From the IMG/VR virus record IMGVR_UViG_3300005613_000065, positions 1-62,467 of that record: 62,467 nt of DNA; one strand, written 5' to 3'. Source of the stretch: a virus (lineage: Duplodnaviria; Caudoviricetes). A model generated the notes under the pieces. That model saw only the letters and a list, made by a program, of their open reading frames with translations, was not told where the DNA came from and made no database searches. Positions 7,461 to 20,555 of this stretch are shown here, in pieces; positions within the stretch are counted from its first letter, which is position 1; each line of letters begins with the position of its first letter. Position numbers and translations under genes: made by a program.

Positions 7461-7517
7461 AAAACTATGTGGAAGTCATAAATACTTTTTGATTATGGCT
7501 TCCATACATAAAATCCA

Positions 7518-8153: not shown

Positions 8154-8184
8154 CAGACTCAAAAGTATTGGGAGATAAAGAATC

Positions 8185-8346
8185 ATGCAATACATGAGAT
8201 TATTTGACACAACGGCAGATGCACAGACTTATCTCATAAACACTTACGGGTATTCTGTATCAGAAGCACAAATTTATCTTACAAAACATACTGTTACAGC
8301 TATTCCTTCAATTGGCGATAAGATTTGGGTTATTCTTCCCAGTTAA
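8185..8346 (+). CDS. small hypothetical protein
   Basis: read by hand MQYMRLFDTTADAQTYLINTYG...; GGAG SD; stop overlaps repeat copy 1. Confidence 0.6.
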   Translation: MQYMRLFDTTADAQTYLINTYGYSVSEAQIYLTKHTVTAIPSIGDKIWVILPS

Positions 8347-8367
8347 AGTTAGTTACCTCTTAGGGTT
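8346..8367 (+). repeat. 33-bp element copy 1 (degenerate, lacks -10 part)
   Basis: AAGTTAGTTACCTCTTAGGGTT. Confidence 0.7.
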
Positions 8368-8379
8368 GGGCGGTCATGC

Positions 8380-8447
8380 TGCGGGGGCGTAACTTGACGT
8401 AAGACCCATTTTATGGTATAAATATAATTACCCCCGCAAATAGAAGA
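8380..8447 (+). promoter_or_regulatory. promoters and leader-complementary segment before HEG-like ORF
   Basis: TGCGGGGG 8380-8387 complementary to CCCCCGCA in the leader (~8431-8438); TTGACG 8394-8399, 17 nt, TATAAATA 8417-8424. Confidence 0.55.
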
Positions 8448-8903
8448 ATGGACTGGAACTGTGAAGGTCTCAATCGTGCCTTTGAGTGTGATGGACCGTC
8501 AGTAATTACACTGACAGAAGAAGAACTTAAACCTGTGTATGATGCTCGTGTGTCATACGTCAGAGGATCTGTGTGGATTAACAACGGATCAGAACATCAT
8601 ATGGTATTTGAAGATGAAATACCTGATGGTTGGGTGCTAGGACGTATCAACGTTCAGACTGATAAAGAACAATTCAGACAACAGGGACTTAATAATAATA
8701 GTAACGCAAAGAAATATAGAATTAAGTTTAGAAACGGTGATGTGGTAGAATGTCACCAGTTATCTAAATGGGGACGTGAAAATGGTATCAAATACACAGC
8801 ACTGAAGAGTGTGGTACACAGAACCAAACATAAGAAGAATATACACTACTACAAAAAATCTTCTCCTACTTCACACATAGAAAGCATATATCTCATTAAT
8901 TAA
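8448..8903 (+). CDS. homing-endonuclease-like DNA-binding protein with no recognisable nuclease domain
   Basis: WINNG...PDGWVLGR and NAKKY.I.F.NG...L.KW.RENG segments resemble HEG C-terminal modules (compare 11747..12397 C-terminus). Confidence 0.65.
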   Translation: MDWNCEGLNRAFECDGPSVITLTEEELKPVYDARVSYVRGSVWINNGSEHHMVFEDEIPDGWVLGRINVQTDKEQFRQQGLNNNSNAKKYRIKFRNGDVVECHQLSKWGRENGIKYTALKSVVHRTKHKKNIHYYKKSSPTSHIESIYLIN

Positions 8904-8935
8904 AGTTAGTTACCTTGAAATGTCCCCTACAGTAC
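8903..8935 (+). repeat. 33-bp element copy 2
   Basis: AAGTTAGTTACCTTGAAATGTCCCCTACAGTAC. Confidence 0.85.
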
Positions 8936-8954
8936 GAGACACCCTTACGATATT

Positions 8955-9836
8955 ATGACCATGACTCACATCTCCCATCCTGAAGATCTTGTCCTGACTG
9001 GTGATCTGTCGGTTCTTGATCTTCTTTATGATACTGCACATATCTCCATGAAGATGGATGGTATGAGCCTTGTGTGGGGCACTAATCCTGCCAATGGTAA
9101 GTTCTTTGTGTGCACCAAAGCAGCATTTAATAAGAAAAAGATTCGTCTTTGTTATTCTGATGAAGATGTAAAGACTCATTTTGGTCATCAACCAGAAGTC
9201 GAAGAGATTATGAAGTCTTGTCTTCGTTATCTTCCTCGTACTGAGAACATTTATTGGGGAGATTGGCTTGGTTTTGGTGGAACTGACACGTTCAATCAAA
9301 ACACTTTGGTCTATTCTTTTCCTGAGATTATTTCTCAGAATCTTGTTATTGCACCTCATACTCAAGTGTATGTGCATGACCAAATGCATAATGCAGTTTG
9401 TGAACCGTTGATGGAAACTTTTGTTGACACTGATGATGTCAAGTGGGTCCAGCCTTCGGTGGATCGTGTTCATCAGTCCACAAATATTCCAAAAGTGAAC
9501 ACTGATGCAATTAAGTTTCTTTCTCATAAAGAAGCAGAAGTTGCTAAGGTTTCGATCAATAAACTCATTAAAGAAGGTCAAAAAGTTGATGATGCATCTT
9601 TGATTGAGATTCTGGGTTGTCCACAACTTGTAAATCTGTATCAATTTGTAACAGAAATCAAGCTTGATTTGATGGATAGTCTTATTATTACTGATTCTCC
9701 TTCTTGTTTTCTTCCGAATGGATGGGAAACAACTGGAGAAGGTTATGTCTTTCATTCTGAAAATTATGGAAGTGTGAAACTTGTTCGTCGTGAAGAGTTT
9801 GCATACGCCAACTTCAATTTCGGTTATTCGAGTTAG
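8955..9836 (+). CDS. ligase-like nucleotidyltransferase (RNA ligase-like, DUF6267-like)
   Basis: KMDG (motif I KxDG), WGDW, GEGYVF (motif IV), VKLV.R (motif V); N-terminal HISHPED. Confidence 0.7.
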   Translation: MTMTHISHPEDLVLTGDLSVLDLLYDTAHISMKMDGMSLVWGTNPANGKFFVCTKAAFNKKKIRLCYSDEDVKTHFGHQPEVEEIMKSCLRYLPRTENIYWGDWLGFGGTDTFNQNTLVYSFPEIISQNLVIAPHTQVYVHDQMHNAVCEPLMETFVDTDDVKWVQPSVDRVHQSTNIPKVNTDAIKFLSHKEAEVAKVSINKLIKEGQKVDDASLIEILGCPQLVNLYQFVTEIKLDLMDSLIITDSPSCFLPNGWETTGEGYVFHSENYGSVKLVRREEFAYANFNFGYSS

Positions 9837-9862
9837 TTACCTGCAAAGGTCTTTATCACTGT
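9830..9862 (+). repeat. 33-bp element copy 3
   Basis: GAGTTAGTTACCTGCAAAGGTCTTTATCACTGT; supplies the TAG stop of the upstream gene. Confidence 0.95.
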
Positions 9863-9875
9863 AATTACTTGATTC

Positions 9876-11054
9876 ATGATTACTCTTCGTCCTCATCAAC
9901 AACAAGCAGTCAAAGCTCTTCAGAATCATTCTATCGGTCAGTGCATCTTTCCGACTGGTGCTGGTAAGACTTTGGTTGCAATCATGGATGCTGTGTCTCG
10001 TTTTGAGTCTGACATTTCGCGGACCATTGTTGTTGTTTGTCCACGCATTCTTCTGGTCGAACAACTTTCTTCTGAGTATCTTGAGCACATCACTAATGCG
10101 CATGTGATGCATGTGCATAGTGGTGAGACCAGACATTTCAAGACCACTAAACCCGAACAAATTAAGCTTCATCATCAAGTTTGCAAAAATGCAAACGAGC
10201 ATGAGATTATCTTTACTACCTATCATTCTCTTCATCGTATTCAGGAAGCTGAGATTGATGTAGATACCATTTACTTTGATGAGGCGCATAATTCTTGTCA
10301 GAATCACTTCTATCCTGCGACTGAATATTTCAGTCAGAATGCCAATCGCAAATACTTTTTTACCGCAACTCGTAAGACCAGTGTGACACCGAAGAAACCA
10401 GGCATGAACTGGACTGAGACCTATGGTCAGGTGATTGCACGAGTGTCTGCACCTGATCTAGTTGAGAATGGATACATTCTTCCGCCTAAAGTCAAGGTGA
10501 TTGAGATGGATAAGGTGGACAAAAAGTCTCTGACTCCTCATCTTGAGAGCAATAATGTTCTTGCTTCGATTGATGAAATTGGAATCAAAAAGATTCTAGT
10601 TTGTGTCAAGACTTCGCGACAGTTGCAGAATCTGTTCATGACAGACTTTGCATATCAATTAACAGAACGTGGTTACTCTTATCTTTACATTACGGCTAAG
10701 ACTGGCGCAATTATTGATGGTCGCAAAGTGTCCCGTGAAGAGTTCTTCAACATTCTAAATGTATGGGGTAAAGACAAATCTAAAAAGTTTGTTGTACTGC
10801 ATCGGTCGATTCTCAGCGAAGGAATTAACTGTAGTGAACTTGAGGCTGTTGTGTTTCTTCGTAATATGGACGCAATTGAGCTTCTTCAAACTGTGGGTCG
10901 TGTGATTCGTGTCGGTTCAGAGAATAAAACCTATGGTTTGTTGTGTGTGCCAGTGTATTCTAATGTTGGAGTTTCGACTCAACGTTCTCTGCAGAAGTGT
11001 GTAGATATTGTGTTTGAGAAAGGTGAAATGCTTGATTCTGTTGTTCGGAGGTGA
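9876..11054 (+). CDS. SF2 DEAH helicase (ResIII/UvsW-like)
   Basis: LRPHQ, PTGAGKT Walker A, DEAH, TAT, ILSEGIN, QTVGRVIR motifs. Confidence 0.9.
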   Translation: MITLRPHQQQAVKALQNHSIGQCIFPTGAGKTLVAIMDAVSRFESDISRTIVVVCPRILLVEQLSSEYLEHITNAHVMHVHSGETRHFKTTKPEQIKLHHQVCKNANEHEIIFTTYHSLHRIQEAEIDVDTIYFDEAHNSCQNHFYPATEYFSQNANRKYFFTATRKTSVTPKKPGMNWTETYGQVIARVSAPDLVENGYILPPKVKVIEMDKVDKKSLTPHLESNNVLASIDEIGIKKILVCVKTSRQLQNLFMTDFAYQLTERGYSYLYITAKTGAIIDGRKVSREEFFNILNVWGKDKSKKFVVLHRSILSEGINCSELEAVVFLRNMDAIELLQTVGRVIRVGSENKTYGLLCVPVYSNVGVSTQRSLQKCVDIVFEKGEMLDSVVRR

Positions 11055-11057
11055 TTG

Positions 11058-11273
11058 ATGGGATTTGATTACACTAACTCTCACATTCTTAATTCACAAC
11101 CTGGCCCAATGGGATTTGTGATTGGAAATGGGGAATATGCTGCAATTCCAATGATGGGAAGTACCACTAAGCTCATGGTAATTCATAACGATCTTCAGCT
11201 TAAAGTATGTCGAAACCGCCAATCTGCCATGAGTTTTATAGATAAACATAGAAAATCAAATAAAAAAAGTTAG
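11058..11273 (+). CDS. hypothetical cyanophage protein
   Basis: ORF track; GGAGG SD; stop inside repeat. Confidence 0.75.
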   Translation: MGFDYTNSHILNSQPGPMGFVIGNGEYAAIPMMGSTTKLMVIHNDLQLKVCRNRQSAMSFIDKHRKSNKKS

Positions 11274-11299
11274 TAACCTGCAAAGGTCCTCTGTAGTGT
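11267..11299 (+). repeat. 33-bp element copy 4
   Basis: AAGTTAGTAACCTGCAAAGGTCCTCTGTAGTGT. Confidence 0.95.
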
Positions 11300-11312
11300 A
11301 ACTGTTGACTTG

Positions 11313-11483
11313 ATGATGACTTCCTTGCATATTGAACTTTACAATGATGGTGTTTGGCAATGCCCAAATACTGGGATGATGATTCCTCTGGGATCTGCAC
11401 CTTACAATGAAGAGGAAATTGCAGAGATGGAAAGGTTCAACATCGATGCACATCTTGATGACGCAATGGACTGGGACTTCTAG
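11313..11483 (+). CDS. small acidic hypothetical protein
   Basis: read by hand MMTSLHIELYNDGVWQCPNTGMMIPLGSAPYNEEEIAEMERFNIDAHLDDAMDWDF. Confidence 0.7.
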   Translation: MMTSLHIELYNDGVWQCPNTGMMIPLGSAPYNEEEIAEMERFNIDAHLDDAMDWDF

Positions 11484-11485
11484 AA

Positions 11486-11617
11486 ATGTCAAACACTCCA
11501 AACTGGCAACATCACAGCCAAAAACAAAAGAAAACGAAAGGAACTTGTAAGGGTATTCTAAGGGGGCGTAAGCAGTCTCTGAAGGCCCTGAAACTCAAGC
11601 TAAGTAGTAAGAGTTAG
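11486..11617 (+). CDS. small basic hypothetical protein
   Basis: read by hand MSNTPNWQHHSQKQKKTKGTCKGILRGRKQSLKALKLKLSSKS; stop inside repeat. Confidence 0.65.
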   Translation: MSNTPNWQHHSQKQKKTKGTCKGILRGRKQSLKALKLKLSSKS

Positions 11618-11643
11618 TTACCTGCAAAGGTCTTCATTACTGT
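11611..11643 (+). repeat. 33-bp element copy 5 (within 55-bp direct repeat 11589-11643)
   Basis: GAGTTAGTTACCTGCAAAGGTCTTCATTACTGT. Confidence 0.95.
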
Positions 11644-11651
11644 AACCAACT

Positions 11652-11746
11652 GATAAATAATAATGCTTAATCGTGGTTGTTTAAGCAAATGAAGGGGTCT
11701 TAATGATCCCTTTTTTAATAAATAATAATAACCACGATTAAAGCAG
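11652..11746 (+). promoter_or_regulatory. HEG control module copy 3 (different sequence, same architecture)
   Basis: GATAAATA 11652-11659; hairpin TGCTTAA/TTAAGCA 11664-11687; terminator GGGGTC/GATCCC+T6 11694-11716; AATAAATA 11717-11724; leader ATAACCACGATTAA 11728-11741 complementary to 11667-11680. Confidence 0.75.
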
Positions 11747-12397
11747 ATGGAATACTACACTTACGCATATTTGCGCGAAGATGGATCACCCTACTACATT
11801 GGTAAGGGTAAAGGAAATAGAGCATATAATCAGCATAAAAGAAAAGGAATAGGTTTTTTGCCAGTTCCACCAAAAGATAGAATAATCAAACTCAAGCAGA
11901 ATCTCACCGAAAAAGAAGCATTTAGACATGAAATCTATATGATTGCTGTTTTTGGTAGAAAAGATTTGGGAACAGGTATTTTAATAAATCTTACTGATGG
12001 TGGAGAAGGATCATCTGGTGCTATTCCTTGGAATATAGGTAAGAAACACTCTCAAGAAATAGTTGAGAAGATAAGAAAAAAAGCAACAGGAAGAATACTG
12101 GATGAGAATACCAAACAAAAAATGAGTAAATCTCATAAAGGCATAAAACATACAGAAGAAACAAAGAAACTAATATCACAAAAACAACTAGGGGAAAATA
12201 ATCATAATTTTCAATATGTTTGGATATTTACCTTTGAAAGTGGTGAAGTTGTCAAAACATCAAGTATGCCAAGTTGGTGTAAAAATAATGGATATGATAA
12301 AGCAGCATTGATGAGAGTGTGTAAAGGTCAAGTTGGAAGACACAAAGACATTGTGACAGTTGAGAAAGTGTCACACAACCCCTTCCAACGGGCATAA
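11747..12397 (+). CDS. GIY-YIG homing endonuclease with NUMOD3 repeats
   Basis: YTYAY...YYIGKG...[12 protein letters not shown]; [21 protein letters not shown]3-type repeats. Confidence 0.85.
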
Positions 12398-12410
12398 AAG
12401 ACCCTATAAT
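12352..12410 (+). promoter_or_regulatory. promoter with perfect palindrome TGTGACA-N10-TGTCACA
   Basis: palindrome 12352-12375; TATAAT 12405-12410; weak -35. Confidence 0.65.
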
Positions 12411-12437
12411 ACAAAGGTAATCAACGAAACGCCTCAA

Positions 12438-12845
12438 ATGAGCACCAGAAGTCGCGTAGGTCTTGAACTTGCTGACGGAAGTATCCTCTCAATCTACTCA
12501 CATTATGATGGGTATCCTGAGTGGGCGGGTCGTATTCTTCGCACCCACTATAATACCCGTGAGAAAGTTGAGGCACTTGTGGATGGTGGAGATGTAAGTT
12601 GTCTTTGGACCGATGAAGGATTTTATACTTCTGAAGGTTCAACTCAACGGGATTGTTACGGACCTCTTCATTACAACGAAAGAGGTGAAAATTGCCCTCC
12701 TCGTCTTGATGCTAACTTGATTGAGTATGTTGGTGATGGTGAAGAATATGCCTATCTTTATACTTTGAAAGGTGAATGGGTATGCTATGAACTTCACGAA
12801 ACTCCTAAAATTGTTGAAATTCCCTCTGGAGCACTCATGGCATGA
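12438..12845 (+). CDS. conserved hypothetical phage protein
   Basis: ORF track 12360..12845; start MSTRSRVG; YSHYDGYP and EYAYLY motifs. Confidence 0.8.
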   Translation: MSTRSRVGLELADGSILSIYSHYDGYPEWAGRILRTHYNTREKVEALVDGGDVSCLWTDEGFYTSEGSTQRDCYGPLHYNERGENCPPRLDANLIEYVGDGEEYAYLYTLKGEWVCYELHETPKIVEIPSGALMA

Positions 12846-12864
12846 AACTTAAGCTAAGTAGTAA

Positions 12865-12897
12865 GAGTTAGTTACCTGCAAAGGTCTTCATTACTGT
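12865..12897 (+). repeat. 33-bp element copy 6 (within 55-bp direct repeat 12843-12897)
   Basis: identical to copy 5. Confidence 0.95.
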
Positions 12898-12914
12898 GAC
12901 CCACTAATTTAATT

Positions 12915-13475
12915 ATGAAAAATCGCTCACAAATTGGCATAAAACTTAAGTCTCTTCTCATTGCAGGTATTCTCGCAATACCTGCATTTTTTTCAAATCA
13001 AGTCAAGGCAGATGAACAACATCGTTATCTTGCAAGAACTATTCGATCTGTTGGAGTTTCTGTAACTATCAACACACGAGTTCATTGTTCTCCAGGAGAA
13101 TCTGGGAGTTATTATCCTGCAGGATTTATGGTCATCTGTCAGGACAATCGCAGGCAAGATGGAGTCGAAGTCGAATGGACTGCTAATGATCTTGATACTC
13201 TGCGCCATGAAGCACATCATATGATTCAGGATTGTGCTGCTGGTGGTATTGGTGATCGTAAAATGTCTCTGATGTTTAACACTCAAGAAGAGCTTGTTAG
13301 ATTTTTATCAAATTCTGGCTACACACAACAAGAACTACAACAAATTTCTAGTCATTATCAAAAACAAGGTGTGACTGGCTATGATTTGTTGATGGAATTG
13401 GAAGCATTTGCAGTTGCTAGATCCATTCCTGCTGATATTATTGCAAACAAAATTAAGGAGTATTGTATCGAATGA
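12915..13475 (+). CDS. putative zinc metallopeptidase-like protein with signal peptide
   Basis: HEAHH (HExxH), downstream ELEAF, hydrophobic N-terminus ending VKA. Confidence 0.7.
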   Translation: MKNRSQIGIKLKSLLIAGILAIPAFFSNQVKADEQHRYLARTIRSVGVSVTINTRVHCSPGESGSYYPAGFMVICQDNRRQDGVEVEWTANDLDTLRHEAHHMIQDCAAGGIGDRKMSLMFNTQEELVRFLSNSGYTQQELQQISSHYQKQGVTGYDLLMELEAFAVARSIPADIIANKIKEYCIE

Positions 13476-13651
13476 ATCTTGACAAATTGACTCACGTTCA
13501 AAAAGAATTACTTGCAGAAGATTGTGAAGATTTTCTTTTGCATCGTAACATTCCTCTTCGTTCGCATTCGTATGATAATATCATCGAACAAGCATTGAAA
13601 GAGGGTTATCAACTCTCCAAGTTTGATCGTTTCGTAAATCTTCCAAAATGA
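13472..13651 (+). CDS. hypothetical protein
   Basis: ORF track; ATGA overlap. Confidence 0.7.
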   Translation: MNLDKLTHVQKELLAEDCEDFLLHRNIPLRSHSYDNIIEQALKEGYQLSKFDRFVNLPK

Positions 13652-13797
13652 AAGTGCTTTTTGTAATTCTAAGTTTGACATTCATCTTTGGATGGAATGC
13701 TGTTCTTGTCCGAAGAGATGCAAAGATGTTTGATGCTTACAATCAAGAATGTGCAGAACTTCCACAATCACATCCTAATTGCCGATTCGCAAAATAA
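13648..13797 (+). CDS. small membrane or secreted protein
   Basis: read by hand MKVLFVILSLTFIFGWNAVLVRRDAKMFDAYNQECAELPQSHPNCRFAK. Confidence 0.65.
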   Translation: MKVLFVILSLTFIFGWNAVLVRRDAKMFDAYNQECAELPQSHPNCRFAK

Positions 13798-13800
13798 TTT

Positions 13801-13833
13801 AAGTTAGTAACCTTCAAAAGTCCACATTATTGT
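13801..13833 (+). repeat. 33-bp element copy 7
   Basis: AAGTTAGTAACCTTCAAAAGTCCACATTATTGT. Confidence 0.85.
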
Positions 13834-13849
13834 AACTCACTAATTTATC

Positions 13850-14134
13850 ATGAAGTATTTTGAACAAGACAATTTCTTCTTGATTGAAGATATTGAAACC
13901 AATCTGAATCTCCAACGTGGTAATATTCCTTGGAGCAAAATTGCAGAATCTTCTAAGAATGGAAAGGCTTGGTTTTACAGTCTGAATCTCACTAAATCTA
14001 CCGATCCTAACTATCGACCTAAAACTCCAGCTACTTGGGTAAAAAAAGGATACGTATTTACATCTCGCAAAAGTCCAAACCTGAACACTGGTGAGCCAGG
14101 ATACTACATTTGGTGCACGAAATCACCAGAGTAA
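13850..14134 (+). CDS. hypothetical protein
   Basis: ORF track. Confidence 0.75.
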   Translation: MKYFEQDNFFLIEDIETNLNLQRGNIPWSKIAESSKNGKAWFYSLNLTKSTDPNYRPKTPATWVKKGYVFTSRKSPNLNTGEPGYYIWCTKSPE

Positions 14135-14174
14135 ATTATTACTCTATTTTGCTATTTTTATTTTATTCTAACCC

Positions 14175-14384
14175 ATGAACAATTCTTCTCAGATTCTCCG
14201 TGAAATGCAAAGTCTTCAAAAAACCTGGAGGCAGCAGAACTTTATGTTGACGAAAGAACAATCTGCAAGGTATCAAGAACTGTCTCTACTTCGCCAAGCA
14301 TTTATTTCATATTGGAAAGAGCAGGGTTTGGTATGGACTGGCCCATCTAATGTAGGTAAAGCCAAAACTGAATCTGCAGCTTGA
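14175..14384 (+). CDS. hypothetical cyanophage protein
   Basis: ORF track. Confidence 0.75.
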   Translation: MNNSSQILREMQSLQKTWRQQNFMLTKEQSARYQELSLLRQAFISYWKEQGLVWTGPSNVGKAKTESAA

Positions 14385-14403
14385 TTTTTGTTGTTTATTG
14401 AAT

Positions 14404-14730
14404 ATGATGATGCAATTTGATTCAAATCGTTCCGAAGTCTTTGAAACGGAAGGTACAGTATTTGAGTACAATCATGAACGTACAGAATACATCGCAGATG
14501 ACATTCTAGAACAATATGAAGCTCAAATGCGTAAGATGGTTGATGAGTTTAACTCGTCAAGTCGAGCAAAGAAACTATCACTTGCAGATGACATCTTTTC
14601 TCTTCATTCAGAATGGAATGTAAAAGATAATGATGAAACATTGTATCTGGTCTTTAATCATGATGATGAATGTTTCACTGATGTCAGAACTGATAATAAA
14701 CATTATGCAAATCCTTTCAAAAAAAGTTAG
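14404..14730 (+). CDS. hypothetical protein
   Basis: ORF track 14398..14730; stop inside repeat. Confidence 0.75.
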   Translation: MMMQFDSNRSEVFETEGTVFEYNHERTEYIADDILEQYEAQMRKMVDEFNSSSRAKKLSLADDIFSLHSEWNVKDNDETLYLVFNHDDECFTDVRTDNKHYANPFKKS

Positions 14731-14756
14731 TTACCTGCAAAGGTCATCTGTAGTGT
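14724..14756 (+). repeat. 33-bp element copy 8
   Basis: AAGTTAGTTACCTGCAAAGGTCATCTGTAGTGT. Confidence 0.95.
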
Positions 14757-14781
14757 GAGAAACGCAATTCACTGAAACTTG

Positions 14782-14943
14782 ATGAAGTATGACATCCGCA
14801 TCGAATACAAAGACGGAACTGTTGAAAAGTTTCAACGCAAAAGTAACATCAAGCCAATCAACTGTGTCAAACTGAACGACAAAATTGCAGAGGAAATCTT
14901 TCCCCGCGATTGGAGAGAAATTAGCTCAATTCCTGTTTATTGA
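14782..14943 (+). CDS. small hypothetical protein
   Basis: read by hand MKYDIRIEYKDGTVEKFQRKSNIKPINCVKLNDKIAEEIFPRDWREISSIPVY. Confidence 0.7.
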   Translation: MKYDIRIEYKDGTVEKFQRKSNIKPINCVKLNDKIAEEIFPRDWREISSIPVY

Positions 14944-14945
14944 TT

Positions 14946-15134
14946 ATGACTAACGGCTACACTCTCAACCGAGTTGAGTTCACTCAAGATGAAGAAACTT
15001 GCATTCTTAAGTTTCTTCGTGAAGCACAAGAATGTGGTTATCCTTCAGGCAATGAGCCTTGGTATCCAATTATTAACTCTATCATGCGAAAGTATTATGA
15101 TAGTGATGTCAAAGAAGCACAGGTGATTTGGTAA
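14946..15134 (+). CDS. hypothetical protein
   Basis: ORF track 14940..15134. Confidence 0.75.
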   Translation: MTNGYTLNRVEFTQDEETCILKFLREAQECGYPSGNEPWYPIINSIMRKYYDSDVKEAQVIW

Positions 15135-15289
15135 TGATTTACAACATTGCTAGTGATCTTGACACTCGAAGAATTGTCTGGATTTGTTCATCTTATCAGA
15201 CTGTACATTCCTCTGTGGAAGTATCAGCAATCTGTCGCAAGATGAGTCGAATTAAAGTTAGTAACCTGCAAAGGTCATCTGTAGTATGA
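15134..15289 (+). CDS. small hypothetical protein
   Basis: read by hand MIYNIASDLDTRRIVWIC...; coupled start; reads through repeat copy 9. Confidence 0.5.
   Translation: MIYNIASDLDTRRIVWICSSYQTVHSSVEVSAICRKMSRIKVSNLQRSSVV
15255..15287 (+). repeat. 33-bp element copy 9
   Basis: AAGTTAGTAACCTGCAAAGGTCATCTGTAGTAT. Confidence 0.95.
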
Positions 15290-15303
15290 GAAACGCAAAT
15301 TGT

Positions 15304-15471
15304 ATGACTGAAACTTTCACTGTTCGTTTTATCTCTGAAGAGCTTGATTCTCCAGAGTATTTTGGGCCTTTTCATTCTGAAGATGATGCCTATGATTTTG
15401 CTGATGAATCTAACATTCGTTTGAGTCTTGCCGGGATTCCTTCTTGGGTTGCATCTTATTCTGTTGTATGA
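15304..15471 (+). CDS. small acidic hypothetical protein
   Basis: ORF track 15286..15471; likely start MTETF. Confidence 0.75.
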   Translation: MTETFTVRFISEELDSPEYFGPFHSEDDAYDFADESNIRLSLAGIPSWVASYSVV

Positions 15472-15544
15472 ATCTGACATTATTTGCGGTGATTACTTTC
15501 ACCATTTGCTTTACATTTCTTTCATTCACTCTTCCTTAAATCTT

Positions 15545-15670
15545 ATGATTGAAACTTACAACTTCAGTGGTAATGTTGTCACCTTTTTAGGTTTGATTGG
15601 TGTAGTTTCTACTGGTATCATCGTGGCTACATCTTTTCGGCGTTATTTTAACTCTCCTCTACGGAAATGA
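15545..15670 (+). CDS. small membrane protein
   Basis: C-terminal part of ORF 15428..15670; one TM helix, ends RRYFNSPLRK. Confidence 0.65.
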   Translation: MIETYNFSGNVVTFLGLIGVVSTGIIVATSFRRYFNSPLRK

Positions 15671-15855
15671 AAATCACAAAGCAACAAGCATTGCTTCGGT
15701 TTCGTGATGACTTGAAAGTAGTATCTCGTTCCAATCCTGACATTCAAAACGATACGATTATGAAACGTGAAGCATGGAATGATTTTGTTGATTCTCTCAA
15801 CAAAGAAGGTTATGTAACTGATTCTCAAGCATTTAACTGGTCAAATCCTTTCTGA
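15667..15855 (+). CDS. hypothetical cyanophage protein
   Basis: ORF track. Confidence 0.8.
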   Translation: MKITKQQALLRFRDDLKVVSRSNPDIQNDTIMKREAWNDFVDSLNKEGYVTDSQAFNWSNPF

Positions 15856-15858
15856 ATT

Positions 15859-16056
15859 ATGAAACTCGAAACTCAACTTATTTGTCTTCAAGAACGTCTG
15901 CAAGATGCAGTGAATGTATGTAATGAATCTCCAAAATTGGAGGATCAAGGTTATCCTTATGCTACTGGTTACTCTCGATCTGCAATGCAAGGTGTAATTG
16001 AAGATTTGAATCGAATCATGCAACAACTCAGTGATTCTCAGGAGATTGACTTTTAA
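15859..16056 (+). CDS. hypothetical cyanophage protein
   Basis: ORF track; GYPYATGYSRS motif. Confidence 0.8.
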   Translation: MKLETQLICLQERLQDAVNVCNESPKLEDQGYPYATGYSRSAMQGVIEDLNRIMQQLSDSQEIDF

Positions 16057-16063
16057 GGTATTC

Positions 16064-16096
16064 AAGTGAGTTACCTGCAAAGGTCATCTGTAGTGT
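16064..16096 (+). repeat. 33-bp element copy 10
   Basis: AAGTGAGTTACCTGCAAAGGTCATCTGTAGTGT. Confidence 0.95.
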
Positions 16097-16119
16097 AAGA
16101 ATCAAGCAAATCAAGACAA

Positions 16120-16479
16120 ATGCAAATCGCACAAAGCAAAACTGAGTTTCTGACTGAATCATTGGTCGAGCAATTGAACGATCGTTGGTATGTTGAGAAT
16201 ATCGAATCTGAGAGTAATTATGATTACTTTGCGAAAGCATTTATCAAATCTGGTCGTAAGTATTTGAAGATTATGATTTGTGATGTAAATCGTAAGAATG
16301 CAGAATACAATGCTCGTTCGCATGGGCGAGTCTACATGTTTGTGGAGAAAGAGACTGGTTTTTGTTACAAACCCGCAAGTCTGAATGCACCTGCCAAAGG
16401 TGTGCGATTTGGGATTCATCAACTCGCCAATTATCCTGAGTTTTGTGATAAGTTTGGCAGTTTTCTTTATCTACGTTGA
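16120..16479 (+). CDS. conserved hypothetical phage protein
   Basis: GRKYLKI...FVEKETG..YKPAS..APAKGVRF family pattern. Confidence 0.85.
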   Translation: MQIAQSKTEFLTESLVEQLNDRWYVENIESESNYDYFAKAFIKSGRKYLKIMICDVNRKNAEYNARSHGRVYMFVEKETGFCYKPASLNAPAKGVRFGIHQLANYPEFCDKFGSFLYLR

Positions 16480-16555
16480 TATTTCTTTTTCGCTATTGTT
16501 ATTACACATTTCTTGGTATGTGTATTGTTATTCTAATTGAGTATTTAAAATCACA

Positions 16556-16750
16556 ATGATGTTATCTGAAGAAACAATTTGCAAAATTGCTGATGCATTA
16601 GTAAATGATGTCAGTGATTATGTTTATTCCAGTGAAGAGTATGCATCTGTCATGCGTAAATTAATTGAAGAAGCATTAGATGCAAAAATGGGAGAAATGG
16701 ATGACCAATTGCATTTTGAGTTAGGTTTAATTTTATTTGAGAAACTTTAA
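16556..16750 (+). CDS. hypothetical cyanophage protein
   Basis: ORF track. Confidence 0.75.
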   Translation: MMLSEETICKIADALVNDVSDYVYSSEEYASVMRKLIEEALDAKMGEMDDQLHFELGLILFEKL

Positions 16751-16758
16751 CGGTATTC

Positions 16759-16791
16759 AAGTGAGTTACCTGCAAAGGTCTGTAGTAGTGT
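16759..16791 (+). repeat. 33-bp element copy 11
   Basis: AAGTGAGTTACCTGCAAAGGTCTGTAGTAGTGT. Confidence 0.95.
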
Positions 16792-16812
16792 AAGAATCAA
16801 ACTTTTTCATTG

Positions 16813-16974
16813 ATGCTTTATTCAATTTTGACTTGCAAACGTGATGATCCCGAACAGAATTGGGAAGTGATCATGGGCGCACCATGTGATATGGATCGTG
16901 CGTTAATCAAACTTCAGTATTATCGTAAGAACTGGGGTGTGCAACAAAAGTATCGTGTTGCGCGTGCAAAGTAA
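16813..16974 (+). CDS. small hypothetical protein
   Basis: read by hand MLYSILTCKRDDPEQNWEVIMGAPCDMDRALIKLQYYRKNWGVQQKYRVARAK. Confidence 0.7.
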   Translation: MLYSILTCKRDDPEQNWEVIMGAPCDMDRALIKLQYYRKNWGVQQKYRVARAK

Positions 16975-16990
16975 TTCAATTTTATTCATT

Positions 16991-17170
16991 ATGACACATT
17001 CCAATCCTTATGTTGAACAACTCATTGAGATGGGTTATGATCGTGCAGATTGTGAGACTGTAGCTTCTGCAGGAATGAAGAAAACCTTTCCGCTTACAAT
17101 TCATGGAAGAGTGTATGAAACTCAAGAGCAATATGATGAAGCTCTTGCTGATTTTATCAATGGACTTTAA
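16991..17170 (+). CDS. hypothetical cyanophage protein
   Basis: ORF track 16937..17170; likely start MTHSNPY. Confidence 0.75.
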   Translation: MTHSNPYVEQLIEMGYDRADCETVASAGMKKTFPLTIHGRVYETQEQYDEALADFINGL

Positions 17171-17172
17171 TA

Positions 17173-17346
17173 ATGAATGAAACTGAAATAATTCAACAAT
17201 ATGCTCATTTGATGATTGAAGGCATGAGCAAAGAGGATATGTATGAAATTGTTTTTGAGACCATATCGCAACAATTAAGTAAGTATGATAAAGATCAGCT
17301 TATGGAAGAAATTGAACATTTTTATCCAGAACTTTTGAGCAATTAA
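17173..17346 (+). CDS. hypothetical protein, paralog of 18012..18188
   Basis: read by hand MNETEIIQQYAHLMIEGMSKEDMYEIVFETISQQLSKYDKDQLMEEIEHFYPELLSN. Confidence 0.75.
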   Translation: MNETEIIQQYAHLMIEGMSKEDMYEIVFETISQQLSKYDKDQLMEEIEHFYPELLSN

Positions 17347-17378
17347 AGTAAGTTACCTGCAAAGGTCAGTAGTATTGT
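17346..17378 (+). repeat. 33-bp element copy 12
   Basis: AAGTAAGTTACCTGCAAAGGTCAGTAGTATTGT. Confidence 0.95.
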
Positions 17379-17396
17379 AAGTTTCGCTTTTGTTTT

Positions 17397-17729
17397 ATGT
17401 TCTGCATTGAGATGACTTTCGCTGTCATGAATCCTGACTTTCAGGGTGCTTATCTTGCGATTTGTGATGATGATATTCGTACTGCTAAATTGTTTGATAC
17501 CAAGCATGAGATGTATGGTTGGATTCGTGATCAAATTGAGAATCAAGGTGTAAGTCAAGTGACTACAACTGTTCTTGGCAAAAATGGTGAAGTTGATGAT
17601 CGACTTGTTTGTGATTCTGTTCGGTATTTTGCTGATGAGAATTGTTACAAAGGCGGTATGTATGAGCCAATCTTTGGTGATAATATTCGCCAAGTTCCTT
17701 CTTACAAAGATAAGTTCTCCTGGATTTAA
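17397..17729 (+). CDS. hypothetical protein (single-gene unit between two repeats)
   Basis: ORF track. Confidence 0.8.
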   Translation: MFCIEMTFAVMNPDFQGAYLAICDDDIRTAKLFDTKHEMYGWIRDQIENQGVSQVTTTVLGKNGEVDDRLVCDSVRYFADENCYKGGMYEPIFGDNIRQVPSYKDKFSWI

Positions 17730-17760
17730 GTTAGTTACCTGCAAAGGTCTGTAGTATTGT
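17728..17760 (+). repeat. 33-bp element copy 13
   Basis: AAGTTAGTTACCTGCAAAGGTCTGTAGTATTGT. Confidence 0.95.
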
Positions 17761-17781
17761 AAGTTTCGCTTCTTAATTCTG

Positions 17782-17985
17782 ATGCCTACTGTGGATCGCC
17801 TTGAAATGCTCACGGCAAGGGAACAACTAATGGAGGACATTGATGCTATTATTGAAGGTTTTTACTTTGACAATCCAGTTCAAAACTGCTGCGGTGATGA
17901 CCGTCTCCAACTAACTGCCACTGATAGTGATGAGCTCATCCGCACACTATGTGATGCCGTCTGCAAAAACTTCCCCACTAATTGA
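17782..17985 (+). CDS. hypothetical cyanophage protein
   Basis: ORF track. Confidence 0.8.
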   Translation: MPTVDRLEMLTAREQLMEDIDAIIEGFYFDNPVQNCCGDDRLQLTATDSDELIRTLCDAVCKNFPTN

Positions 17986-18011
17986 TACAAACTCATTCTT
18001 CCTTAATTAAC

Positions 18012-18188
18012 ATGAACCGCACTGAACTACAAGAGTCCTACATTCAACAATTGATTGAAGGTATGGATTACAAAACGATGGAACGACTTGTTTATGATTC
18101 ACTGAATGATAATTTAAGTGCTTACGGTGAGGCAGAACTTATCACTGAGATTGAAGAGTATTATCCCGAACTGTTGGAGGAAAATTGA
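18012..18188 (+). CDS. hypothetical cyanophage protein
   Basis: ORF track 17982..18188; start MNRTEL. Confidence 0.8.
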   Translation: MNRTELQESYIQQLIEGMDYKTMERLVYDSLNDNLSAYGEAELITEIEEYYPELLEEN

Positions 18189-18343
18189 TGCCTTACACTG
18201 TTGAGATTACTGAAACTTATTACACCACAGTTTCTTTTGAAACTGAAGAAGAAGCAAAGGAGTTTATGAAGGAACCCAATTATGATCTGGTTGATAGTTG
18301 GGAACTTGATGATGCCAAACTGAAACTTTTGGAGGGAAACTGA
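18188..18343 (+). CDS. small acidic hypothetical protein
   Basis: read by hand MPYTVEITETYYTTVSFETEEEAKEFMKEPNYDLVDSWELDDAKLKLLEGN; coupled at both ends. Confidence 0.75.
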   Translation: MPYTVEITETYYTTVSFETEEEAKEFMKEPNYDLVDSWELDDAKLKLLEGN

Positions 18344-18591
18344 TGCCAACTGTTCAAGTTTACGGTGTCAAGTTTGACACTACAGATGATGGATTTGGTG
18401 ATCTTTCCAGGGAGGAAACTTTGAAACTGGAGAGAGACATTGAAGGTCGCATCTTTGAGATAGATTGTCACCCTGATGCTGATATTGCTGAGTTTGAGTA
18501 TGAGATTTGTGATGCCATTACTGAAGAAACTGGTTGGTGCGTGAATACTTTTAGCTATCGTCATGTTGTCATTGGAGCAAACGATAACTGA
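18343..18591 (+). CDS. acidic hypothetical protein
   Basis: ORF track; ITEETGWCV motif. Confidence 0.8.
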   Translation: MPTVQVYGVKFDTTDDGFGDLSREETLKLERDIEGRIFEIDCHPDADIAEFEYEICDAITEETGWCVNTFSYRHVVIGANDN

Positions 18592-18857
18592 TGTATTCTA
18601 ATCTCTCAAAGATTAAGCCAGCCTTCAGGACTGAGGGACAAATCACAGGGAATTGGGGTAGACCAAAGACTCGCACTCATGGTAATACTGATCTCGGATT
18701 GACTTCTAAAGATCATATCACAATCACAAAACAAAGTGATTACATTCAAAGAATGTATCAGGTTCTTGATCATACTCAAGATCCAAAGATTCGACGATTT
18801 GCTTTTAATGAAATTAAAAAGTATTTGATACAAACAAATCAATGGAAAAACACTTAA
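18591..18857 (+). CDS. hypothetical cyanophage protein
   Basis: ORF track. Confidence 0.8.
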   Translation: MYSNLSKIKPAFRTEGQITGNWGRPKTRTHGNTDLGLTSKDHITITKQSDYIQRMYQVLDHTQDPKIRRFAFNEIKKYLIQTNQWKNT

Positions 18858-18993
18858 AAGCATGGTTTTTATCTTAAAAAGCATTTAAAAAAGGCTTATT
18901 AAATGTTATTAAGCGTTTTGTAATGATTATTACTGCTTTTTAATATTGATAAGAATTCGTATCAAATAGTGATATGAATACTGATTATGATGA

Positions 18994-19083
18994 TAGAAAC
19001 CTTCTGCTTATGTGTCTAGAAACCTTCTAAATGCCTCATGTTCTTGTGATTAATGCCTTCTAAATGCCTCATGTTCTTGTGAT
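18994..19083. repeat. tandem direct repeats in AT-rich intergenic region
   Basis: CCTTCTAAATGCCTCATGTTCTTGTGAT at 19023-19050 and 19056-19083; TAGAAACCTTCT at 18994 and 19017. Confidence 0.9.
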
Positions 19084-19093
19084 CTTAGGCCGT

Positions 19094-19122
19094 ATCATAT
19101 CAGGCCTTTTCAGTATTGTCAA
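19094..19122 (-). promoter_or_regulatory. minus-strand sigma70-type promoter
   Basis: reverse complement reads TTGACA-17 nt-TATGAT. Confidence 0.7.
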
Positions 19123-19146
19123 GGGCCCCCAGATTTTTCAGAATTA

Positions 19147-19179
19147 TTGTTAGTAACCTGCAAAGGTCATTTACAGTGT
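19147..19179 (+). repeat. 33-bp element copy 14
   Basis: TTGTTAGTAACCTGCAAAGGTCATTTACAGTGT. Confidence 0.9.
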
Positions 19180-19195
19180 CACCCATTGAATCCTG

Positions 19196-19321
19196 ATGAC
19201 CTCGACACAGCAACTATTGCAATCGATTGATACATTAAAAGCAGAAGGTCATCAATCAATTAAGCTTATGCAATTGCCATCACAAGCCAAACGTAAGCGC
19301 AAGTCTGTATGGTCTCGATAA
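19196..19321 (+). CDS. small basic hypothetical protein
   Basis: read by hand MTSTQQLLQSIDTLKAEGHQSIKLMQLPSQAKRKRKSVWSR. Confidence 0.65.
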   Translation: MTSTQQLLQSIDTLKAEGHQSIKLMQLPSQAKRKRKSVWSR

Positions 19322-19414
19322 GACTCTACAGCAGGGTTTCATTATCTTTTAGGTATCATTTGTCCTTAGTATGACATTAAACTGCTTCAATGTCCTCTTT
19401 ATTCTTCTTGAATT

Positions 19415-19564
19415 ATGTCTCGCGAATTGATGATTGGTCTGCTTCGTAAGGGTCGGAATGGCAATCAGATTCTGAATATTCTGGATGCTATTGTGGTTAC
19501 TGATGATTTGGAATCGATTGAGATTCCTGCTTCTGAGCCTACTTTGGAAGAGCTTGAATTCTGA
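19415..19564 (+). CDS. small hypothetical cyanophage protein
   Basis: read by hand MSRELMIGLLRKGRNGNQILNILDAIVVTDDLESIEIPASEPTLEELEF. Confidence 0.7.
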   Translation: MSRELMIGLLRKGRNGNQILNILDAIVVTDDLESIEIPASEPTLEELEF

Positions 19565-19575
19565 TTGTTTCTAAA

Positions 19576-19820
19576 TAAATGAGTATTTGTTGAGATCTTG
19601 TAGAGCAGCACTTGAACTCTCCCATTGGGAAACAGAGGTAACAATCTGACAAAGAAGCAAGCAAATACTCATTTAATTGATTATACTCAGAGGGAGTTTA
19701 TCTTGTCTCCGGCGTAATAAAACAGAACATAAAATCAGAGTAAAAGATGATGAGAATTAAATAAAAAGCAGGACGATTCCTGATTAGAACTTTATGTCAA
19801 ATTCTAATCACTTAGGAGTC
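19576..19820 (+). ncRNA. candidate structured non-coding RNA
   Basis: no ORF; perfect 14-bp inverted repeat 19576-19589/19662-19675 plus two further stem domains; strand assumed. Confidence 0.4.
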
Positions 19821-19838
19821 ATATTTTGTTGCGTATTA

Positions 19839-19871
19839 AAGTTAGTTACCTCGAAAGGTCCCCTGTAGTGT
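19839..19871 (+). repeat. 33-bp element copy 15
   Basis: AAGTTAGTTACCTCGAAAGGTCCCCTGTAGTGT. Confidence 0.9.
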
Positions 19872-19888
19872 AATCGTTGATTCCTCTC

Positions 19889-20248
19889 ATGCGTAAGATC
19901 GAAGCTCAAATGAATTCTGCCATCACTAACAATGTGCATTGGCAATCTGCTAACACTACTGTTACCTTCGATTCGGAAACTAATGAGTCCAAAGTGTATC
20001 TGTATGGCAATCTGATCGCTGAGGTTGGCGATAACTACTTTAAGCTTTATGATGGTGATTATCAGTCTGCTACTACAAAGTCGCGACTGAATGCTATTCT
20101 GGCTACACATGGCGCACCTGGTGAGTGTGTCTTTCAGAAGAATTTGAAGTGGTTTATTCGTCTCTGGAATGGCACGGAATACTTCACTACTGAATTCCGT
20201 AATGGCATGAGGCTTGGTGCACTTCCTTGGCAACTATGCCTCGCCTGA
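19889..20248 (+). CDS. conserved hypothetical cyanophage protein
   Basis: ORF track 19877..20248; MRKIE...TTKSRLNA family pattern. Confidence 0.85.
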   Translation: MRKIEAQMNSAITNNVHWQSANTTVTFDSETNESKVYLYGNLIAEVGDNYFKLYDGDYQSATTKSRLNAILATHGAPGECVFQKNLKWFIRLWNGTEYFTTEFRNGMRLGALPWQLCLA

Positions 20249-20273
20249 TTCTTATTTTATCTCCTGATTCTTT

Positions 20274-20555
20274 ATGTACACTCAAGTTCAAACAATTCAA
20301 GCACAGTTTGACTTTATCTCTGATCTGCCTTATACTGGCTTAGCTGAAGTATGCGAAGAGTCTCAAGTCACACCTATCAGTGCTACATTGCATGAAAATA
20401 CTTCTCATGGTGTGCCTTATTTTGATATTGAATTTGTATCAATACAAGATGCAATTCGTTTCACTCGAACATACTTAGACTCGAATAATTTGAGTGAACT
20501 TTGTGATTATCTTCAGCTTGATGTGACAAAATCTGAACTGCAAGATATGCTATAG
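20274..20555 (+). CDS. hypothetical protein
   Basis: ORF track. Confidence 0.75.
   Translation: MYTQVQTIQAQFDFISDLPYTGLAEVCEESQVTPISATLHENTSHGVPYFDIEFVSIQDAIRFTRTYLDSNNLSELCDYLQLDVTKSELQDML

Follow-up and report, generated by a model that had tools for sequence, protein, structure and literature searches.

A rigid 38-base repeat heading gene units in a T4-like cyanomyovirus and its relatives: a probable promoter of first-expressed genes

The window (the whole stretch of 62,467 nucleotides analysed here) derives from a T4-like cyanomyovirus contig and contains, between tail-fibre and baseplate genes, a block of small genes to which no function has been assigned. A 38-base repeat divides this block; 14 complete copies and a truncated fifteenth lie between positions 8346 and 19876, all on the + strand. 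In the gene map every copy is intergenic, lies on the coding strand and heads a gene unit of one to five ORFs, as a sequence-only reading of this DNA had described. Element positions are numbered from the first A of AAGTTAGT, and the copies with their associated features are as follows.

8346..8359, + strand: truncated copy, matching over its 5' 14 nt alone
8394-8424: different upstream region after the truncated copy, TTGACG-17-TATAAATA, serving ORF 8448-8903
8903..8940, + strand: divergent copy (TTGAAATGTC core), heads the DUF6267 gene 8955-9836
9830..9867, + strand: copy, heads the helicase unit 9876-11273; upstream TAG stop inside the element
11267..11304, + strand: copy, heads a 2-ORF unit
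11611..11648, + strand: copy, left member of the 66-nt direct repeat (11589-11654) flanking a homing-endonuclease unit
12865..12902, + strand: copy, right member of the 66-nt direct repeat (12843-12908)
13801..13838, + strand: copy with AAAAGTC core
14724..14761, + strand: copy
15255..15292, + strand: copy; upstream ORF 15128-15289, as called, would extend across it
16064..16101, + strand: copy, heads the DUF7717 gene 16120-16479
16759..16796, + strand: copy
17346..17383, + strand: copy
17728..17765, + strand: copy, heads a 5-ORF unit
19147..19184, + strand: copy with a 290-nt ORF-free gap upstream
19839..19876, + strand: last copy, heads the Kyano_Gp96-family gene 19889-20248

The 22-mer proposed in the sequence-only reading, searched with up to 3 mismatches, recovered 14 of the 15 starts listed there, all on the + strand (8903-19860), against a chance expectation of 0.00 in 100 shuffles. 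The remaining start, 8346, gave a partial nhmmer match (E=0.095) limited to AAGTTAGTTACCTC and divergent beyond it, so that the count of fifteen stands for 14 full copies, with 8346 being truncated. RB11-B carries the sequence that lies downstream of this truncated copy, without the half-element. Scanning of the whole window on both strands with a PWM and nhmmer yielded no further copies, in agreement with the earlier statements that the element has a single orientation and occurs nowhere else in the window. The stop codon of the upstream ORF overlaps eight copies (8346, 8903, 9830, 11267, 11611, 14724, 17346 and 17728) and the upstream ORF ends 3-8 nt before three more (13801, 16064 and 16759), the same eight and three as noted from the sequence. 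An ATG follows 13-25 nt past element position 33 in 14 of the 15 window copies, and 13 of these ATGs begin an ORF of 30 aa or more, which matches the thirteen start codons reported earlier; the ATG behind copy 11611 opens only 9 codons, the real gene start being at 11747.

The 3' part of the element resembles a -10 hexamer. At positions 26-31 the family has TATAGT and the window copies TGTAGT or ATTACT, which bears out the TAnnnT-like hexamer seen before, although the register is ambiguous between 26-31 and 28-33 (TAGTGT). Among related sites, strong conservation extends to positions outside the search pattern (T28 0.96, A29 0.92, C25 0.90, T26 0.81), and a CA about 6 bases past TATAGT is retained as well (A38 0.75, preceded by C37 0.66). 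GTTAST occupies the -35 position of the element, and a TTGACA-like -35 is absent from the window copies and the family profile alike, as had been claimed. A scan with the sigma-70 consensus found no + strand match above 10/12 at any copy; the four 11-12/12 sigma-70-like + strand promoters in 6000-23000 (6224, 20584, 21221 and 22077) all lie outside the array. In 461 of 563 related sites the first ATG falls 10-30 nt past position 33, most often at 13-17 nt, and a G-poor, A/C-rich stretch lies downstream of the element. The reported scarcity of Shine-Dalgarno (SD) sequences holds across the family: SD-like motifs occur at 5 of 484 sites, and precede 30 of 456 first genes versus 126 of 628 internal genes. 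The dyad ACCT-N4-AGGT, described as internal to the element, occurs in 12 of the window's 14 full copies but is not a family feature: among the 563 related sites only 24% have a G at position 19. RNA folds of six copies were in all six cases no better than those of shuffles (z -1.33 to +0.52) and had no structure in common, the element had no match in Rfam, and no terminator-like site was found at any copy.

A scan of related cyanophages, suggested together with the initial description, showed that the element is widespread. In five Synechococcus phage isolates it stands at the head of gene units in the corresponding small-ORF region; it is also found in at least 117 IMG/VR stretches, and amounts in the related collection to 569 copies on 123 loci, with no locus having copies on both strands. 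The window and its relatives hold a compact and very rigid early-region element in hundreds of natural copies. The genomes of RB11-B, RN05-S, S-B05 and S-B43 (about 210 kb) each contain the pattern 9-15 times and the reversed-pattern control 0-1 times. These copies cluster in small-ORF regions, which form a single block in both RB11-B and RN05-S and two blocks in both S-B05 and S-B43. One recurring mismatched match per genome lies outside the clusters in three of these four genomes. Among 185,579 prokaryote species, cyanobacterium-titled records gave no strict-pattern match, and six single matches were obtained elsewhere; the element is not a host motif.

A large share of the Synechococcus and Prochlorococcus cells in the sea is lost to T4-like cyanophages, and to our knowledge it is not settled how their infection starts without sigma-70-type early promoters, MotA and AsiA. 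The sequence-only reading considered the element a non-canonical promoter, a gene-capture site, or both. Judged from sequence features, the promoter part of this proposal has the better support and the capture part holds only partly: the repeat is most likely the special, non-sigma-70 promoter that this virus group uses for its first-expressed genes, and most likely serves occasionally as a crossover point for gene swapping too. A standard sigma-70 (SigA) promoter was considered and rejected, as only the TAnnnT -10 part fits and a TTGACA-like -35 at a spacing of 16-18 bp is missing. The element would drive the small genes between the tail-fibre and baseplate genes, presumed from synteny and general background to be early genes. 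The hexamer at 26-31 or 28-33 would act as the -10, and transcription would start at the conserved C37-A38, leaving a leader of only about 9-13 nt, free of an SD sequence, before the ATG. With this start, GTTAST would be placed at -35 to -30, ACCT at -28 to -25 and AAAnGTC at -22 to -16, and the invariant block may stand in for a -35, being read by something other than the standard sigma-70 -35 contact. Since there is no terminator at the copies, transcripts from successive copies would nest. Moreover, identical direct repeats of about 40 bp in a recombination-proficient phage can be expected to recombine occasionally, adding or removing whole units; we read such events as a by-product rather than as the work of a dedicated cassette machine.

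A novel element is said, in the work of Doron et al. 2016, to control early genes and to be conserved among T4-like cyanophages (Syn9, P-TIM40), whose middle genes reportedly have host-like promoters. The compact element is probably the form which that element takes in the present clade. Both are non-sigma-70, would belong to one temporal class in T4-like cyanophages and coexist with host-like promoters of another class, the near-perfect sigma-70 promoters of the window being found only outside the array. The published element is said to be abundant and conserved, and the window element is likewise widespread in isolates and metagenomes and not host-like. The element region is syntenic with Syn9 gp55-gp93, and the element stands in front of orthologues of the Syn9 helicase, gp73 and gp90; the orthologues of these three genes in SynMITS9220M01 are preceded by the compact element, and in Syn9 itself by its own repeated upstream motif, which partially resembles the compact element with a different spacing. 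Syn9, S-RIM2 and Bellamy have an extended layout, in which a GTGCCAGTTG...AAGTGTCCAC block is followed by about 25-30 nt, often with a GC hairpin plus a run of T, and next by ..TACTATAAGAGTC.. and the ATG, whereas in the window clade the block abuts the -10-like hexamer. With a similar block lying about 30 nt further from the hexamer, the extended form may work differently or be a separate family. The nhmmer profiles of the compact element did not detect the motif of Syn9, S-RIM2 and Bellamy, and the link between the two layouts rests on synteny and a common GTCCACTAT stretch.

Several known systems share part of this design. In T4 middle promoters a MotA box replaces the -35, and sigma is appropriated by MotA together with AsiA. 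The window element likewise combines a normal -10 with a conserved non-sigma-70 block around -30, but its block is longer (-35 to -16) and its genes are presumed early, to be expressed before any phage protein unless one is injected. Furthermore, T4-like cyanophages, which have early, middle and late gene classes, are reported to lack motA and asiA. The likeness proposed from the sequence was to PeSLs, the promoter-early stem-loop cassettes of RB49, phi1, T4 and KVP40-type phages (Arbiol et al. 2010, PMC2839356; Comeau et al. 2014, PMC4122927). The comparison holds for the general arrangement: both are repeated intergenic elements in the hyperplastic small-ORF region of a T4-type phage and presumed early promoters, begin at the upstream stop codon, finish near the next ATG, and sometimes flank unit indels whose relative has a single copy. 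It does not hold for the structure, since the window element lacks a sigma-70 -35 (having only the -10-like hexamer), a stem-loop or terminator and an SD sequence, is shorter (about 38 bp against about 100 bp) and is far more rigid in sequence, and since most indels are not element-to-element. Cyanophages are unmentioned in the available portions of both papers. Intergenic repeats carrying promoters are also reported for the halovirus HF2 (PMC8707807); these too are short repeated viral sequences that proved to be promoters, but they belong to an archaeal virus with unrelated sequence and transcription machinery.

The tight spacing to the ATG, most often 13-17 nt, would also fit a role at the RNA level, with the element acting in long early mRNAs as a processing site, an SD-independent translation-initiation signal or a regulator-binding site. 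The near absence of SD motifs behind the element and the G-poor, A/C-rich stretch downstream point the same way, and as no terminators separate the units, read-through RNA would contain the element. We nevertheless regard this role as unlikely, because no conserved RNA structure or Rfam match was found, the best conserved 3' positions match a -10 of the TAnnnT type that is followed after about 6-7 nt by a CA, and the internal genes of the units do without the element. More improbable still is a dedicated cassette system, in which the repeat would be a recombinase-recognised site of the integron kind or, as has been proposed for PeSLs, the main vehicle of gene capture. In related contigs, homology does break more often at element junctions (258 of 378) than at other gene junctions (226 of 492; odds ratio 2.5, from counts that are not phylogenetically independent), and HSPs pile up at the element edges, with starts at positions -5 to +4 (162 of 509) and ends at +35 to +44 (77 of 562). 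Plain junctions are, however, frequent breakpoints too, and element junctions are borders of transcription units, where insertions are tolerated. Two copies flank only 5 of 84 clean indels, the other genome then having a single copy, whereas 39 touch no element and 35 touch one at the right edge only, 74 of the 84 in all. The expectation that gene content would break at the element, and the gene-capture claim behind it, are supported only in part: the enrichment favours them and most of the indels do not. The homing-endonuclease unit of the window, which lies between the two copies contained in the 66-nt repeat and is absent from the relative L023, would suit a cassette, but where RB11-B and RN05-S differ by indels, these represent either inserted homing endonucleases or insertions to one side of an element, none being element-to-element. 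The diversity of neighbours is similar at element and non-element junctions (0.56 vs 0.51, p=0.63). As to excised mini-circles joined at the element, a mark of PeSLs, the Logan contigs offered only joints with sides of 20-24 nt. A site of the integron attC type was rejected: there is no hairpin of that kind, the 4-bp dyad is not conserved, and a scan of 20 array proteins turned up no recombinase. These data quantify how far such promoter repeats contribute to gene shuffling, and the contribution of the element is real but minor.

The promoter reading may be refined by two variants of the element, described here as new, which hardly ever occur together in one genome. Position 7 carries either G or C, and each of the 47 contigs having 6 or more copies (413 in total) keeps to one of the two throughout, the purity being 1.00 versus 0.67 after shuffling; positions 3 and 9 reach 0.93 and 0.90, and the remaining variable positions differ little from their shuffled values. 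Among the 87 contigs with two or more copies, G alone is found in 57, C alone in 27 and both in 3. These unmixed variants offer a direct handle on finding what reads the element. One possibility, which we put forward tentatively and which is compatible with a promoter, is that a lineage-specific factor binds the invariant 5' block and that phage lineages have switched between two specificities. Such a factor, encoded by the phage and perhaps delivered with the virion, or else a particular host sigma, would recruit or retarget host RNA polymerase to the early genes, or shut these genes off. Carried further, and just as speculatively, the element could form the cis-acting half of a so far unrecognised specificity system for early transcription. 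A factor brought or chosen by the phage would read the invariant -35 to -16 block, and lineages would have switched repeatedly between the incompatible versions TTAGTW and TTACTC. As all of the dozen or so promoters of a genome would have to match, imported genes would have to be refitted with the resident 5' half, which may occur via crossovers inside the element; promoter specificity and cassette exchange would then be coupled. Against a specificity factor, a Pfam search of 20 array proteins gave no DNA-binding or sigma domain and hence no candidate, and a crossover inside the element core that keeps the resident 5' block would also produce uniformity. In favour of it are the uniformity itself, the lack of strict-pattern matches in cyanobacterium-titled records, the location of positions 3, 7 and 9 within the putative -35 to -29 region and the finding of 16 gene families behind both the G and the C type. 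A helicase tree, which is only a quick tree, requires 5 switches of type, of which supported branches force at least 4; even so, in 52 of 53 cases the element belonging to the helicase agrees in type with the remaining copies of its array.

A repeated element in the early region had been described, in a sequence-only reading, as present in fifteen same-strand copies. A 22-mer search allowing up to three mismatches returned 14 of them, all on the plus strand between 8903 and 19860, against a chance expectation of 0.00 from 100 dinucleotide-preserving shuffles, while the fifteenth (8346; copies are named by start coordinate) proved partial, sharing the first 14 nt before diverging and giving a partial nhmmer match (E=0.095). 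PWM and nhmmer scans of all 62,467 nt of the window on both strands revealed nothing further, as had been stated. The ORF map also bore out the described placement of the copies: the upstream stop codon overlaps eight of them and lies 3–8 nt before three more, an ATG follows 13–25 nt past element position 33 in 14 of the 15 (with an ORF of at least 30 aa in 13), and the units, i.e., the ORFs between successive copies, comprise 1–5 ORFs.

The window covers part of a T4-like cyanomyovirus genome, and its right half matches Synechococcus phage terminase, sheath, neck, and baseplate genes. The 8–20 kb part is about 75% identical to the small-ORF region of Synechococcus phages RB11-B, RN05-S, S-B05, and S-B43. 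Many small ORFs of the array (the region with the copies) belong to no family; the array genes with a family are the following:

DUF6267 gene
DEAD/ResIII helicase gene
11747-12397, GIY-YIG/NUMOD3 homing-endonuclease gene, within a repeat-flanked unit
DUF7717 gene
Kyano_Gp96-family gene

Conservation of the helicase extends to 420 phage records, of which almost all are from cyanophages. Pfam and PHROGs searches detected no DNA-binding, sigma, or recombinase domain among 20 array proteins, and Rfam and tRNA scans of the array region gave no match.

Several local features of this region were recorded separately. The ORF at 8448-8903, after the shortened copy 8346, matches an HNH endonuclease weakly in PHROGs and has its own upstream region at 8394-8424 (TTGACG-17-TATAAATA), in which TATAAATA, placed behind a host-like -35 (TTGACG), resembles the T4-type late-promoter octamer. 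The same stretch precedes the homologue of this ORF in RB11-B, and RN05-S is without the gene. A 290-nt stretch inside the array (18858-19146) has no plus-strand ORF of at least 30 aa and no Rfam or tRNA match; it has, as judged by eye, an approximately 40-nt tandem duplication (..CCTTCTAAATGCCTCATGTTCTTGTGAT.. twice) and a minus-strand sigma-70-like promoter at 19122-19094 (11/12, with a TG extension). Just after copy 12865, a strong terminator-like hairpin (12962-12993; 10 pairs, then 7 T) sits 50 nt within the called ORF 12915-13475; either this ORF has been miscalled or the hairpin is an attenuator. Upstream of the array, 478-856 and 4313-4691 form a 379-nt internal repeat, 87.6% identical.

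The proposal that the element is a non-canonical promoter is the best-supported reading of its sequence features, and we consider it probable that the element functions in this way. The consensus of 563 sites is A-W-T-A followed by AAGTTA(G/C)TnACCT(c)(c)AAA(t)GTCCnC-TATAGT-(G/A)T-AA-n-C-A. Conservation extends to positions not fixed by the search pattern, namely A0 (0.96), C25 (0.90), T26 (0.81), T28 (0.96), A29 (0.92), G30 (0.78), C37 (0.66), and A38 (0.75), and the conserved 3' positions look like a -10 hexamer (26-31 or 28-33) with a putative CA start about 6–7 nt further on. If +1 is A38, GTTAST would fall at -35 to -30 and ACCT..AAAnGTC at -28 to -16, and TTGACA would thus be absent, in agreement with the earlier claim that there is no TTGACA-like -35. 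The first ATG is found 10–30 nt past position 33 in 461 of the 563 sites (mode 13–17), hence the leader would be about 9–13 nt long. Such leaders mostly have no SD, as had been noticed: SD-like tetramers were seen in 5 of 484 leaders and, by gene calls, before 30 of 456 first genes versus 126 of 628 internal genes. The internal dyad that had also been pointed out is a local feature but not a family-wide one, as 24% of sites have G at position 19, whereas the partner base C12 is invariant. RNA folds of six window copies were no better than those of shuffled sequences and had no common structure, and no terminator-like site was found at any of the element copies. The four plus-strand sigma-70-like sites scoring 11–12/12 within 6000-23000 (6224, 20584, 21221, and 22077) are all outside the array; known host sites such as NtcA, the Pho box, and LexA do not appear to match the invariant positions of the element. 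Contig ends near elements occur in DNA runs too (3 DNA and 1 RNA run, Logan contigs), and the joints near elements in these contigs, with sides of only 20–24 nt, were not trusted.

The element belongs to a phage-borne family. RB11-B and RN05-S carry 12 and 13 copies, respectively, in the syntenic region. A degenerate pattern, ACCTNNAAANGTC-N8-TRT with at most one mismatch, scanned through five records (four complete genomes, each about 210 kb, and a 50-kb IMG/VR contig), yielded 9–15 matches per record (0–1 for a reversed-pattern control). These cluster in small-ORF regions: RB11-B and RN05-S each show a single block, S-B05 and S-B43 each two. The exception, in three of the four genomes, is a recurring match with a mismatch, one per genome. 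In four of the five records all matches share one strand; S-B05 has 3 forward and 12 reverse matches in separate parts of the record. A stricter pattern was found in at least 117 stretches of IMG/VR, and nhmmer (E<1e-3) over 144 loci detected 569 copies on 123 of them, none of which had copies on both strands. The stricter pattern gave six single matches in one genome per species of 185,579 prokaryote species, none in a cyanobacterium-titled record, which argues that the element, in its present form, is not a host promoter motif. The common variant is present in the isolates RB11-B, RN05-S, S-B05, and S-B43, and a one-base-shifted version of it in SynMITS9220M01 (11 copies). Querying phage records by BLAST with a 33-nt copy from the window gave no cyanophage match, because the TGC..GG variant of the window is rare among isolates; an exact 16-mer scan of IMG/VR gave mainly lone, uninformative matches, with the exception of one related contig (L023).

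The array shares synteny with Syn9 gp55-gp93, where small ORFs are followed by helicase gp75, further small ORFs, and then baseplate gp25. The syntenic region of Syn9, S-RIM2, and Bellamy carries a different, extended upstream arrangement, also repeated, in which the block GTG(C/A)CAGTTG-N4-5-AAG(T/G)TG(T/G)CCAC(TATCG) is followed by about 25–30 nt, often including a GC hairpin plus a T run, then by ..(GGTGCCA)TACTATAAGAGTCAAAGG.., and then by ATG. The whole Syn9 genome contains four composite patterns of this kind on the plus strand, all in 46.3-51.3 kb, and one place on the opposite strand, likely by chance. The frequent position of the GC-rich hairpin and T run between the block and the -10-like hexamer in Syn9 (L002/L003, 46.3-53.1 kb), S-RIM2 (L146), and Bellamy (L145) embeds a terminator in the presumed promoter, as in some subclasses of PeSL, the promoter-early stem-loop cassettes of T4-type phages. 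The extended block resembles the compact element of the window (RB11-B ..AAATGTCCACTATAGTGT; S-RIM2 ..GAAGTGTCCACTATCGCTT; one Syn9 copy ACCTGCCTAAGTGTCCAC), and the helicase, gp73, and gp90 orthologues have the compact element upstream in SynMITS9220M01 and the extended one in Syn9. However, nhmmer profiles built from compact copies found no match in Syn9, S-RIM2, or Bellamy, so homology of the compact and extended elements, judged from these resemblances, is likely but unproven.

Work of 2016 by Doron and colleagues on Syn9 and P-TIM40 is said to have described a novel regulatory element controlling early genes, and host-like promoters for middle genes, both reportedly conserved among T4-like cyanophages. 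A printed cyanomyovirus early motif was not found in a full-text literature search. According to published accounts, T4-like cyanophages have three temporal classes and lack motA and asiA. The element is most likely a compact, clade-specific variant of the known cyanomyovirus early-gene regulatory elements. Its identification as a PeSL was rejected on composition. A terminator-promoter composite far nearer to PeSL than the studied element lies outside the array at 22067-22105; its GC hairpin, which comes with a T run, carries TTGACA in the loop, and TATACT is found 17 nt further downstream (11/12).

Recombination and gene capture had been suggested as a further or alternative function, and this holds in part, as a side effect, but not as a dedicated cassette system. 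We oriented 102 loci with at least two copies, called plus-strand ORFs, and compared the loci by all-versus-all blastn (at least 80% identity and 200 bp, different contigs). After collapsing per locus, 246 of 509 left HSP ends (162 at positions -5 to +4) and 189 of 562 right ends (77 at +35 to +44) fell in the element zone. Scoring a junction within the arrays as a breakpoint if broken for one or more partners, we found breaks at 258 of 378 junctions with an element and at 226 of 492 plain ones (odds ratio 2.5, from phylogenetically non-independent counts); breakpoints thus do concentrate at the element, as predicted, but plain junctions break too. The 84 distinct clean indels comprise 5 flanked by two copies, 35 with an element at the right edge only, 5 at the left only, and 39 with none. 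The five two-copy indels have a 29–53 nt overlap in the other genome, as in L111, where copies 9247 and 9844 correspond to a single copy at 3051 in L132. Within the window, the unit 11655-12842 (the homing endonuclease and a 135-aa ORF) lies between 66-nt direct repeats (11589-11654 and 12843-12908, 94% identical) that each span the upstream ORF's final 22 nt together with the element, copies 11611 and 12865 respectively; this unit is absent from L023, which has one element copy there and whose alignments to the array are the longest and closest of all contigs compared (about 87–92% identity). Speaking against a dedicated system, RB11-B and RN05-S differ by homing-endonuclease insertions, or by sequence inserted or replaced on a single side of an element. 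Nor does neighbour diversity support one: at family level it did not differ between the 7 families followed by an element and the 38 that are not (0.56 vs 0.51, p=0.63). Copies may sometimes serve as homology patches, like any 40-bp repeat in a T4-type phage; in our reading, unit borders are also favoured mosaic borders, and the element is unnecessary for gene turnover. In the 17800-18343 region, contigs from a DNA run (X1) and an RNA-library run (X7) jump back from 18197 to 17800 (side 47), and an X1 contig omits 17979-18338 (side 84); these forms are population variants in gene content, not at elements.

The most interesting lead is the within-genome uniformity of two element variants, and we know of no description of such strict uniformity. 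Identity among the copies of one genome (0.78–0.80) exceeds that between orthologous copies in the window and RB11-B (0.70). At position 7, 63% of copies have G (G-type) and the remainder C (C-type), and this base is uniform in all 47 contigs with at least six copies (413 copies), which gives a purity of 1.00 versus 0.67±0.01 after shuffling among contigs. Positions 3 and 9 reach 0.93 and 0.90, and the other variable positions are near the shuffled values. Both types occur in front of 16 gene families. On the helicase tree (a quick IQ-TREE of 57 rows), type requires 5 changes, with supported branches forcing at least 4, compared with a shuffled mean of 17.6, and the helicase's own element agrees in type with the rest of the array in 52 of 53 cases. 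This agreement across the array indicates that the 5' block (inferred -35 to -29) changes in concert across the genome. Such concerted change fits selection for one specificity that a putative lineage-specific factor would read; it also fits gene-exchange crossovers inside the element core that keep the resident 5' half. Among 87 contigs with at least two copies, 57 carry only the G-type, 27 only the C-type, and 3 a mixture. One mixed array (L077) has a lone C-type copy (798) before the helicase among five G-type copies, its first 36 bases equalling RB11-B's copy, and another (L041) has one G-type copy (2685) among three C-type ones; both copies look like recent whole-unit imports across types.
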